Virus record (IMG/VR): IMGVR_UViG_2740892231_000003
Length of the DNA: 31,603 bases
Direction: 5' to 3' (one strand)
DNA from: a virus
Lineage: Duplodnaviria; Heunggongvirae; Uroviricota; Caudoviricetes
Shown: positions 6,001 to 9,000 of the stretch, in pieces
Numbering within the stretch: the stretch's first letter is position 1
Layout: every line of letters begins with the position of its first letter
Position numbers: made by a program

Positions 6001-9000
6001 CGTCACGATGTTTGGTATTTTCAAAAAGAAAACCCGCAGAGCAGCAGCGGAAATTAAAAAGTTTGAGAAACGCGATCTGGCACAGGCGGTTATTAATGCT
6101 GCCTACCTGGTAGCCTATGCAGATGGTGAATGTGAGGCTTCAGAGAAAGCGAAGATCGAACAGGTATTACGTAACCAGCCTGCGTTGTCCGCGTTTACGT
6201 CAGAAATTAATGCCATCAGTGCCACGATCACAGGTCAGCTTGACACCAACTTTAAAATTGGTCGTCGAGCGGCGTTGCGTGAAATTGAAGATGTGAAACA
6301 CGATACGCGTGAAGCGGAAGATGTGCTGGATGTGGCGGTGGCTATTGCTGAAGCAGATGGTGAAATTGAGCCGGAAGAGCGTAAGGTTCTGGAAGAGATT
6401 GCTGGTGTTCTTGGCCTGCGACTGGAGAACCACCTGTGACGGTAAAACTGCGTCTGGCCGCTGTGGCACTCCTGCTGTTTCTGGTGGTGATGGTGGATTT
6501 CACCACCAGGATCATGTCGGTGCTGGCGGATGGAGTGCTGGTGGTCGGTATTGTGGTGGTGCTTTTTCCTTTGGTGAAAAAGGACATGCCAGGTAGTTAG
6601 CCGGGTATCAGTCATGCCCCGAAAATTTTAAATGTCTCACAATTCAGACGGTTGACAGTTGTCTGTTTTGCGGGGAGTTTGTTAAAAGAAACAGGCATGG
6701 TGAATCCCCCTGAGCGGAGGGGCGACTGGTGCATTAGGTGTTATCTTTGATACCCAGGAAAGTAAACGCGCGGGTTTGGTGGCACCGGGCTGAACTCACC
6801 GGGAGGCACCCGGCATCATGCGCATGATGATACAGATACGCGGCTTTAGCCCCTCTCCGGAGGGGCTTTTATATGAATTTTGTAAGATATGAGTAAACTA
6901 ATTATGGACACTGTTGTTTTAGTCCGTAAGGGCATATTTGCAGAATGCAATGATTATTAAAGCATTCTTTCAATACGTTATCTGAATTTGCAGGACATTC
7001 CTGGCTGTTTTTGATTAAATCCCAGAATCTTTTATTGAATGGTACAACGTTGTAAATGGTTACAGGTAGCACTTTGTTATTAAGTACGATACCTGTGTGA
7101 GTCAACGTAAATATACTTTCAGGAGGTAAGAAAACATCCGATTGATACCAGATTATTAATTTTATTTTACTCCATATGGCTGAAAAAGATATTCCGCATG
7201 ATGGCTGGGTAACTGTATCAATCACAATCCACTTCATTTAGCCTCCTTATTTATGCTGTGCTGGTGATGTTCTGAAAAGTATAAATGATAATTTTGAATG
7301 TAAACCATAGAGCAGAATTATTTTTCTGATGTTGTTTATTGTTTATTTAAATACAGGTTTTTTATATCCCGTCTTGTAGTTTATCCATGCATACCTGCTT
7401 TATGATGAGGTTTTCATTTAAGGTATGGTTTTGTGTTTTTTTTCTGTATTGCATGTCAGGTATTTTAAAGAATTGTTTTTAATATGGTGGAAAGAACCAT
7501 GGCATTTAAACACTACGATGTGGTCAGGGCGGCGTCGCCGTCAGACCTTGCAGAGCGACTGACTCAAAAACTGAAGGAGGGGTGGCAGCCATTTGGCAGC
7601 CCTGTCGCCATCACGCCTTATACCCTGATGCAGGCCATTGCGGCGGAAGGTGATGTCACCACACCTGTGGTGGTGAAGCCGTCGGATGGAGAAGGCACAG
7701 TAATCAGCGCCACCAGCGACCCGGAGTNNNNNNNNNNTGATACACTTGCTCAAAAAATTCGTGAAGGATGGCAGCCATACGGCGGGCCGTTTTCTTCGTA
7801 TACGGATGATGGCGCAGCACTTATTCAGGCGATTGTCGCAGAAGGTGATGTGAGCACACCTGTGGTGGTGAAGCCGTCGGATGGAGAAGGCACAGTAATC
7901 AGCGCCACCAGCGACCCGGAGTATTACTTTGTTGTGGTTCTGGCAGGGCAGTCAAACGGCATGTCGTATGGTGAAGGCCTTCCGCTGCCGGAGACATATG
8001 ACCGTCCGGACCCGCGTATTAAGCAGCTGGCGCGCCGCAGTACGGTGACACCGGGCGGTGCCGCCTGTAAGTATAACGACATTATTCCGGCGGACCATTG
8101 TCTGCATGATGTGCAGGACATGAGCCGTCTTAACCATCCGAAAGCGGACCTGTCAAAGGGGCAGTACGGAACCGTGGGGCAGGGGCTGCATATCGCCAAA
8201 AAACTGCTGCCGTTTATACCGGCGAATGCGGGCATTCTGCTGGTTCCGTGCTGCCGTGGTGCTTCGGCATTCACAACGGGTGCAGACGGCACATACAGCG
8301 AATCAGCCGGTGCATCGGAAAATTCACTGCGCTGGGGTGTGGGTAAGCCGCTGTATCAGGATTTGGTGAGCCGGACTAAAGCCGCACTGGCGAAGAACCC
8401 GAAAAACCGTCTGCTTGCGGTGGTGTGGATGCAGGGAGAAGGTGATGCGGCAGTGGGGACGCATGCGCAGCATCCGGGGCTGTTTAGTGCGATGGTGAAT
8501 CAGTTCAGAACGGAGCTTGCCGGTCTGGCATCACAGAGCACAGGAGGCAGCGCATCAGCGGTACCGTGGATTTGCGGGGACACAACGTATTTCTGGAAGC
8601 AGCGTCATGCGGAAGGGTATGCATCAGTATACGGAGGGTATAAGGGTAAGGAGTCGCAGAACATTTTCTTTGTACCGTTAATGACGGATGAGAATGGTGC
8701 GAATGTGCAGACCAATAACCCGGCAGAAGACCCGGACCTGGAAGCCGTCGGTTATTACGGTTCAAAGTGGCGTAATGACCAGAAGACCTGGACATCTGTG
8801 GACAGGGCCAGCCATTTCAGTTCATGGGCTCGCCGTGGGATTATTTCCGACCGTCTGGCAACGGCGATTCTGGTGCATGCCGGGAGAACCGCTGAATTCA
8901 TTACCGGAAAACAGCCTGATACGGTGAAGCCCACCGGACCTTCCGGTGAAGGCCCGGAGAGAGAGCCGGAAGCCCCGGTCAGTAACCGAACCCTGATGAG

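Follow-up and report, generated by a model that had tools for sequence, protein, structure and literature searches.

Identification of the tciAB gene pair

We analyzed a 31,603-nt stretch of DNA from a virus of the class Caudoviricetes (IMG/VR record IMGVR_UViG_2740892231_000003), hereafter called the window, and focused on two overlapping genes on its plus strand at positions 6008–6600. These are the genes tciA and tciB of a lambdoid prophage of the Shiga toxin 1 (Stx1) type, homologues of tciA-tciB of phage P1. The first gene (6008–6439) encodes a protein of 143 amino acids (aa) belonging over its full length to the TerB family, and the second (6436–6600) encodes a 54-aa protein of the DUF3927 family, predicted to form a two-helix membrane hairpin. 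On the same strand, the pair is preceded by a structured leader RNA (5871–6013) and by a terminator-like hairpin that forms the 5′ edge of the module (5851–5877, with the hairpin itself at 5851–5871, GAGGTCGC...GGCGGCCTT with a T-run, found by a terminator scan).

The pair was already known and named. It is annotated in thousands of genomes and takes its name from P1 tciA and tciB, and a 1-kb query around it matched 1,640 of 5,426 complete E. coli genomes. The record of Escherichia phage JLK-2012 already annotates both tciA and tciB, and RefSeq labels the two products 'tellurite resistance TerB family protein' and 'DUF3927 family protein'. An earlier note on this DNA had not recognized this identity and had described the two genes as a stand-alone moron, possibly a defence or toxin module of the prophage. 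The TerB fold, the small membrane partner, and the translational coupling described there were borne out by our analyses, while the moron, prophage-defence, and toxin interpretations were not.

The closest named relative, the tciA-tciB(-tciC) operon of phage P1 (AF234172, 70233–70929), resembles the window's pair in its gene order, the tight stop/start junction, the adjacent tRNA genes, and its place in a lytic-cycle operon. P1 TciA shared 42% identity over the full length (E = 2e-33), and P1 TciB, also of 54 aa, shared 46% identity (E = 8e-10). The P1 operon differs in having a TGATG junction where the window has GTGA, in carrying the third small gene tciC, and in lacking a structured leader. 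No plus-strand open reading frame (ORF) of at least 30 aa abuts tciB in the window, although similarity to P1 TciC was not searched for; the next plus-strand ORF starts at 6652 with TTG and runs into an STnc100-family small RNA (sRNA) element at 6666–6878. In the P1 record, the function of tciAB is assigned 'by homology'. A genome-wide CRISPR interference screen found tciA, tciB, and tciC of P1 to be non-essential (PMC10695390), TciA peptides are detectable in P1 preparations (PMC9024508), and the tci operon is variable among P1-like phage-plasmids (PMC9603915). We found no experiment on the function of tciAB in the accessible literature.

TciA is a full-length TerB protein

The tciA ORF begins with MFGIFKKK and has its own ribosome-binding site, as the earlier note had stated, with the Shine-Dalgarno (SD) sequence AAAGGA at 5994–5999, 8 nt ahead of the ATG. 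Residues 26–138 matched the Pfam TerB family (PF05099) with 61.2 bits (cut-off 24.4, E = 1.4e-16), and the protein matched phrog_632 ('tellurite resistance') from end to end (E = 1.8e-69). A profile built from nine diverse phage TciA proteins retrieved the TerB protein of K. pneumoniae (PDB 2JXU, E = 1.4e-16), with residues 13–137 of 143 aligned to residues 19–144 of 153. The AlphaFold2 model, computed from a 25-sequence alignment, had seven helices with a mean predicted local distance difference test (pLDDT) score of 88.5 and a predicted template modelling (TM) score of 0.83, the first ~20 residues being less certain. The best Foldseek matches of this model among solved structures were 2h5n (probability 1.00, TM score 0.56–0.63) and 2ou3, a 'tellurite resistance protein of COG3793', both TerB-like, with weak E-values of 0.02–0.9; globins and other helical proteins ranked after these two, with much worse root-mean-square deviations. 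We conclude that TciA is a complete, soluble, all-helical TerB-family protein, which is more than a TerB-like domain.

Two acidic motifs of the form ADGxxExxE, noticed before, were located at residues 38–46 (A38-D-G-E-C-E-A-S-E46) and 116–124 (A116-D-G-E-I-E-P-E-E124). E46 and E124 were invariant in an alignment of nine diverse phage homologues. Paired ADGx5E motifs are the proposed metal-binding pair of the TerB family, and this role is putative in TciA.

The N-terminus of TciA, MFGIFKKKTRR, consists of a hydrophobic tip followed by a polybasic run, in which G3 and K7 are invariant throughout the family. TerB has been termed amphitropic (PMC7823757), and the composition of this segment would fit both that description and peripheral membrane binding of TciA.

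The tciA frame is open upstream as far as a GTG at 5936, and some database entries are longer still (for example P0121, 192 aa). Because all diverged homologues begin with MFG or MLG behind a conserved SD sequence, these extended entries almost certainly have the wrong start and translate the leader RNA.

TciB and the conservation of the gene pair

TciB matched the Pfam family DUF3927 with 56.4 bits (cut-off 25, E = 2.9e-15) and phrog_1470, 'TciB-like inhibition of cell division or resistance to colicin' (E = 1.8e-23). Its hydropathy profile had two hydrophobic stretches, at residues ~5–20 and ~29–47, separated by DFTTRIMS, with Kyte-Doolittle means over 15 residues of up to 2.8 and 3.05. This agrees with the two-helix membrane protein described in the earlier note. 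With K4 and R6 near the N-terminus and KKD at the C-terminus, the positive-inside rule suggests a hairpin with both ends in the cytoplasm (N-in/C-in). The conserved core of the protein reads DFT(S/T)xxMSxLADGVLV. In an exhaustive search with hidden Markov models (HMMs) of 1.84 billion representative sequences, only 111 DUF3927 proteins were found, nearly all of them stand-alone proteins of 45–65 aa. A tblastn search with TciB against the phage collection gave no match, probably as a result of low-complexity masking, and direct comparison and HMMs were used instead.

To describe the pair beyond the window, 171 loci with TciA homologues were collected from the window, curated phage records, and 160 IMG/VR contigs. 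A DUF3927 homologue lay directly downstream of tciA on the same strand in 167 of them. The ratio of nonsynonymous to synonymous substitution rates (dN/dS) of tciB against the window allele was about 0.13–0.5 once dS exceeded about 0.3, which points to purifying selection. The small ORF is not a chance reading frame. TciA homologues without TciB were present in Pseudomonas phage PMBT3, Vibrio phage K481, and one Pantoea prophage, and Pseudomonas phage Zuri carried an unrelated small membrane protein in the place of TciB.

In the window, the GTG start codon of tciB (6436–6438) overlaps the TGA stop codon of tciA (6437–6439). The resulting GTGA overlap (6436–6439) couples translation of tciB to that of tciA, and an identical 4-nt overlap is annotated in RefSeq and in JLK-2012. 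Tight coupling was kept across diverged phages: of the 167 loci, 149 had a GTGA junction, 12 had TGATG or TAATG with an overlap of 1 nt, 2 had TAAATG, and 1 had a gap of 3 nt. The occurrence of several junction sequences across lineages indicates that coupling has been maintained by different sequences. In two E. coli database proteins (P0124 and P0186), TerB and DUF3927 are joined, apparently by a frameshift at the GTGA overlap. Such proteins reflect either errors in sequencing or rare fusions that occur in nature, and we did not use them as evidence of interaction. The longer DUF3927 proteins P0250 and P0295, which are chimeras with fragments of unrelated enzymes, were likewise set aside.

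A structured leader RNA upstream of tciA

Between the terminator and the tciA start codon lies a leader of ~135 nt that was far more conserved than the protein it precedes. Leaders were near-identical where the TciA proteins were only about 43% identical, and the leader could still be recognized in prophages of Pantoea and Klebsiella and in a jumbo phage of Erwinia. The terminator-then-leader layout was seen again in related loci. From the 5′ end, the leader comprises a hairpin, H0 (5882–5886/5893–5897), with a conserved hexaloop, followed by a long hairpin built from three helices. At its base, helix P1 pairs an anti-SD sequence, CCUUU (5913–5917), with AAAGG of the SD sequence (5994–5998); above it stand helices P2 (5921–5929/5981–5989) and P3 (5933–5941/5964–5972). 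A further helix, A, pairs a 5′ segment (5905–5912) with the apical loop (5953–5960), so that either a pseudoknot or a competing fold would result.

Covariation supported this structure. A covariance model, R1, was built from 22 sequences without helix A and scored the window leader at 157 bits (E = 1e-43). When 96 distinct sequences were aligned to R1, 94.6% of cells could pair, compared to 30–47% when the 3′ partners were slid by 1–3 columns; 23 of the 28 pairs changed on both sides, and none of 500 shuffles reached the observed scores, the alignment in this case being fitted to the model. In a plain MAFFT alignment, 86.5% of cells were paired compared to 40–55% after sliding, with 11 covarying pairs, and RNAalifold recovered helices P1 and P2 de novo. 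At least 10 sequence versions of helix A preserved its pairing, among them CCACAGAG/CUCUGUGG, CCGUAGAG/CUCUACGG, CCCCGAG/CUCGGGG, and CCAAAGA/UCUUUGG.

The rod in which the SD sequence is paired was the minimum-energy fold in 18 of 22 diverse members. The window's own leader speaks against a simple, permanent sequestration of the SD sequence: its SD-paired rod lay 1.3 kcal/mol above a different minimum-energy fold, and its ensemble SD pairing was 0.43, no different from that of shuffled sequences (0.49 ± 0.15). Both leader copies in the window were tested thermodynamically for SD occlusion, and both behaved the same as shuffled leaders. SD sequestration therefore rests on conservation, on the minimum-energy folds of the relatives, and on covariation, and a bistable or triggered element fits best.

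An anti-SD/SD helix at the base of a long hairpin is also found in RNA thermometers, in pseudoknotted translational riboswitches, and in the folding pathway of hok mRNA. Like such SD-sequestering leaders, the tciA leader has a 5′ segment able to pair with its apical loop, which would give a pseudoknot or a competing fold, and two near-isoenergetic conformers were computed for it. Unlike them, it matches no Rfam family and precedes many unrelated genes instead of a single regulon. A permissive Rfam scan of 5820–6060 gave only noise (E ≥ 3.6), and a scan of the whole window at gathering thresholds found only STnc100. A prophage sRNA study notes TerB as a frequent neighbour (bioRxiv 10.64898/2026.05.13.724894). 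Identity of the leader with PasA or PasC was rejected because of the place of these sRNAs between nanS-p and holin, and identity with PasD/STnc100 because of their place upstream of nanS-p.

A second, diverged copy of the leader was found on the plus strand of the window at 11271–11418 (R1 score 49.9 bits, E = 2e-12), between the lysozyme gene and an antirepressor ORF that starts at 11413 (Pfam P22_AR_N). It lies directly upstream of this ORF, and its helices are compensated relative to the tciA copy. In a related prophage, R1 detected further diverged copies ahead of antirepressor and Rha genes, and a pattern scan of viral contigs yielded at least 120 further instances. The ORFs at a fixed short distance past the leader SD sequence encoded TciA (24), a tail-tip-like 328-aa protein (45), glycosyltransferase-like proteins (12), Rha (11), and T5orf172/MUG113 proteins (7), besides KilA-N, HNH endonuclease, and several unknowns. 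In all, leader copies preceded at least nine unrelated families of phage accessory genes.

We tentatively interpret the leader as a member of a class of cis-acting leader RNAs in enterobacterial phages that has not been described before. In response to a signal, such RNAs may gate translation of tciAB and of no fewer than eight other, unrelated families of accessory genes inserted in lytic operons. The architecture of such a class, offered just as tentatively, would comprise a hairpin that has a conserved loop and is flanked by a terminator, a long hairpin that pairs the ribosome-binding site at its base, and a 5′ segment whose pairing with the apical loop makes a pseudoknot or a competing fold. 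If this is true, tciAB is one cargo of a general 'cassette leader'. If confirmed, the leader would represent a shared translational control of phage accessory genes, including antirepressors in Shiga-toxin prophages, and would bear on how such cargo is silenced or timed. The leader RNA, more than the gene pair, deserves follow-up, the pair itself being of modest interest.

Genomic context and expression of tciAB

The gene order of the window starts with stxA, two STnc100 copies, a first nanS-p gene (2531–4549), a DUF826 gene (4897–5169), two small ORFs, and tciAB. These are followed by STnc100, an iraM-like gene on the minus strand, a second nanS-p gene (7484–9749), holin (about 10390), lysozyme (10609), the antirepressor gene (11413), and Rz (12581). 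The pair had been placed between the lysis genes and the second nanS-p gene; in fact, every lysis gene lies downstream of both tciAB and the second nanS-p gene. The immediate neighbours of tciAB are thus two small ORFs, an sRNA element, the iraM-like gene, and nanS-p.

The Shiga-toxin A subunit gene that opens the window, at about 622–1578, matched the Pfam RIP family (E = 6e-38), and its best genome matches were annotated as Stx1c/Stx1a. With stxA in the window and on the same strand, tciAB would share its late transcription unit with stx1 here.

Lambdoid elements of E. coli, Klebsiella, and Pantoea had a constant order on one strand, in which the antiterminator gene Q or a DUF1133 protein gene was followed by optional DNA methylase and tRNA genes, tciA-tciB, an optional tRNA or nanS-p gene, holin, and endolysin. 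The interval from Q to holin is the one that holds stx in Stx phages, and the window carries both stx and tciAB there. Other phages carried the pair in other regions. In P1, tciAB lies between the C1-operator-controlled Pban promoters and ban, on the ban strand, and in P2/186-like prophages it is part of the early operon in the order cox-fil-tciAB-dam-gpA. The virulent N4-like phages Pollock and FSL SP-076 carry it among nucleotide-metabolism genes, adjoining dUTPase and a gp24-like ATPase gene, and in Erwinia jumbo phages it lies within a tRNA cluster. Phage tRNA genes were repeated neighbours of tciAB, also in many IMG/VR loci; they were Asn-Thr upstream of the pair in P1 and JLK-2012 and Ile/Met-Arg-Arg in E. 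coli prophages. This recurrence suggests a single cassette in which tRNA genes and tciAB move together.

A simple consensus scan of 5553–6008 found no sigma-70-like promoter, and terminator-like hairpins lie both upstream and downstream of the pair. The description of tciAB as a stand-alone moron was weakened by this lack of a promoter hit, the terminator upstream, the late-operon strand, and the position between Q and holin. The lytic-operon contexts, together with the lack of a promoter hit and the upstream terminator, point to expression of tciAB in lytic growth; most likely, the pair is made during lytic development and silent in the lysogen. Its presence in phages that never lysogenize argues for a benefit to the infecting phage.

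Proposed function of tciAB

TerB has been linked to resistance against tellurite, colicins, and phages since the 1990s, and lately to several defence systems. The tciAB pair reduces TerB to a two-gene unit with a 54-residue membrane partner, borne by temperate and virulent phages alike, and offers a small, testable system for the TerB mechanism. We propose, with a probability of about 0.4, a 1:1 complex at the inner membrane in which TciB serves as the anchor of TciA and which conditions or guards the membrane while the phage grows lytically.

In this proposal, tciAB would be transcribed within the Q-antiterminated late transcript, on the strand of stx, nanS-p, and the lysis genes, behind the intrinsic terminator and the ~135-nt folded leader that is able to pair with the ribosome-binding site of tciA. 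As the start codon of tciB lies inside the stop codon of tciA, the two proteins would be made together and in a roughly fixed proportion. TciB would then anchor or recruit TciA at the cytoplasmic face of the inner membrane, aided by the hydrophobic-polybasic N-terminus of TciA, in a manner akin to the association of TerB with TerC, the membrane protein of ter operons. Until programmed lysis, this complex would condition or guard the energized membrane of the infected cell, perhaps by buffering envelope stress or by excluding further insults to the membrane, for example the entry of superinfecting phage DNA or pore-forming colicins. Such a function would be accessory and dispensable in the laboratory.

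Known systems offer partial parallels to such a complex. TerB is reported to be an interaction partner of TerC (Turkovicova et al. 2016, as cited in PMC11003894) and has been proposed as a membrane-surveillance module (bioRxiv 10.1101/2025.09.30.679545). TciA resembles the TerB of the terZABCDEF cluster (2JXU) in its homology over nearly the whole protein, its all-helical fold, and its two ADGx5E motifs, and in both systems a soluble TerB is paired with a membrane protein, TerC there and TciB here. Unlike the ter cluster, tciAB is phage-borne and comes without TerC, TerD, TerE, TerZ, or TerA, and the 54-aa hairpin is unrelated to the multi-pass TerC; no TerC or TerD-family gene was found beside TerB in the window or in related loci. 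DjlA provides another parallel, as a single helix holds its TerB-like domain at the cytoplasmic side of the inner membrane. In TciA, however, there is no J-domain and the anchor would be a separate polypeptide, and the match of TciA to the NCBIfam DjlA model was weak (residues 87–138, E = 8e-7, 28.9 bits against a cut-off of 162).

Several points weigh against the proposed complex. TciA homologues without DUF3927 exist, so TciB is not obligatory. The AlphaFold2 model of the fusion P0124 (TciA plus TciB, 197 aa, with an alignment over the TciA part) had pLDDT scores of 72–87 in the TerB part and below 50 in the membrane part, which formed one long helix; it was uninformative on contact between TciA and TciB, and their contact in a complex is a proposal. 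The consensus promoter scan was crude and is compatible with expression of tciAB in lysogens. Moreover, the idea of 'membrane guarding' is extrapolated from ter operons, and how these operons work is itself unsettled.

Alternative explanations

The alternative that fared best among those considered, and which we still regard as unlikely, is a lysogenic-conversion defence, in which the lysogen would express tciAB and a membrane TerB complex would exclude other phages or abort their infection. The earlier note had raised exclusion and abortive infection for this pair, and the ter cluster of the host, to which TerB belongs, has been connected with inhibition of phages and resistance to colicins (PMC9603915). 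TerB domains are also present in the defence systems Shango, Bunzi, and Dionysus (bioRxiv 10.1101/2025.09.30.679545), and tciAB lies in a region of variable accessory genes. These systems, represented by SngA of Shango, BnzA of Bunzi, and DinB with the pore-former DinC of Dionysus, share with tciAB a TerB module combined with membrane proteins and a proposed role in surveillance. Shango needs a helicase and an ATPase, and Dionysus a pore-forming toxin and a MAEBL protein (bioRxiv 10.1101/2025.09.30.679545); tciAB has none of these partners, is encoded by phages, and stands in a lytic context. The PADLOC models gave no family match in our search, the only line being PDC-S48, an uncharacterised candidate, at E = 0.002 over 35 residues. 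Membership in Shango, Bunzi, or Dionysus was rejected for lack of a model match and of the partner genes. A defence expressed by the lysogen is also hard to reconcile with the lack of a promoter hit, the terminator upstream, and a context that is always a lytic-cycle operon, or with the presence of the same pair in virulent N4-like and jumbo phages, for which no lysogenic state exists. The pair may still be functionally analogous to the defence systems, with a TerB module that works at the membrane.

The presence of the pair in many unrelated phages, virulent ones included, and its expression in the lytic cycle would suit a counter-defence decoy, which we rate as slightly less probable again. 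Here, membrane-bound TciA would interfere with host TerB sensors (Shango, Bunzi, Dionysus, or ter) or mask their signal and thereby prevent abortion of the infection. TciA does align over its full length with genuine TerB, the TerB modules of defence systems are proposed membrane sensors, and DinB is a predicted homodimer (bioRxiv 10.1101/2025.09.30.679545). The idea is purely inferential, and no known anti-defence protein is a TerB homologue.

Host take-over, with the pair arresting cell division or poisoning the host membrane early in infection, appears improbable. The P1 annotation gives 'inhibition of cell division' by homology, which forms part of the tci name, and one report links the ter operon to filamentous growth in Yersinia pestis (PMC4633105). 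A folded leader that gates translation tightly would be in keeping with a harmful product, but the same leader also precedes clearly non-toxic genes (tail-tip-like, glycosyltransferase-like, and HNH endonuclease genes), and family searches of the pair showed no similarity to known division inhibitors or type I toxins. None of the analyses made points to toxicity, which had been suggested in the earlier note as well.

A role in lysis timing, with TciB as a holin-like or antiholin-like protein regulated by TciA that would tune membrane permeabilization, is more improbable still. The lambdoid tciAB lies just upstream of holin and endolysin, and the size and two-helix layout of TciB are like those of small holins; the protein matched no holin family in Pfam or PHROGs, however, and in P1, P2-like, and N4-like phages the pair sits in early regions far from the lysis genes. 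Literal resistance of the host to tellurite or metals, as implied by the family name, the database labels, and the conserved paired ADGx5E motifs, is very improbable, given that TerC, TerD, TerE, and TerZ are absent from the window, that published resistant constructs carry at least terBCDEF (PMC11003894), and that metal resistance of the host is of no gain to virulent phages.

Other features of the window

The STnc100-family element downstream of tciAB (6666–6878, plus strand), which includes a terminator at 6848–6867 by the terminator scan, matched Rfam RF02076 with 139 bits against a gathering score of 47. The tciAB segment is bounded by this element on its 3′ side, and the second nanS-p gene has it as its upstream element. 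STnc100 is related to PasD sRNAs (bioRxiv 10.64898/2026.05.13.724894). The window holds three copies scoring 139–198 bits, at 1941–2152, 2214–2427, and 6666–6878; the first two form a tandem pair (1941–2427) upstream of the first nanS-p gene, and the third lies upstream of the second. The third copy begins 66 nt past tciB, and its terminator would end a tciAB transcript that is not antiterminated.

Runs of N occur within the second nanS-p gene (7484–9749) and in the region before the holin gene (10090–10414). A segment of ~56 nt that includes the holin start (gttgtgagcttccgg...aaaatcaca) is duplicated at about 10090–10145 and about 10358–10413, flanking the N-run. The N-runs and this duplication suggest that the tandem layout of a 'stx block plus tciAB block' may in part be a scaffolding artefact of repeated prophage modules.

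Between STnc100 and the second nanS-p gene, the opposite strand carries an inserted 111-aa ORF (6902–7237, minus strand). It matched the anti-adapter IraM family (NCBIfam NF007393) with 154 bits against a cut-off of 121 (E = 1e-45). The arrangement of tciAB, iraM on the minus strand, and nanS-p was also present in several IMG/VR contigs.

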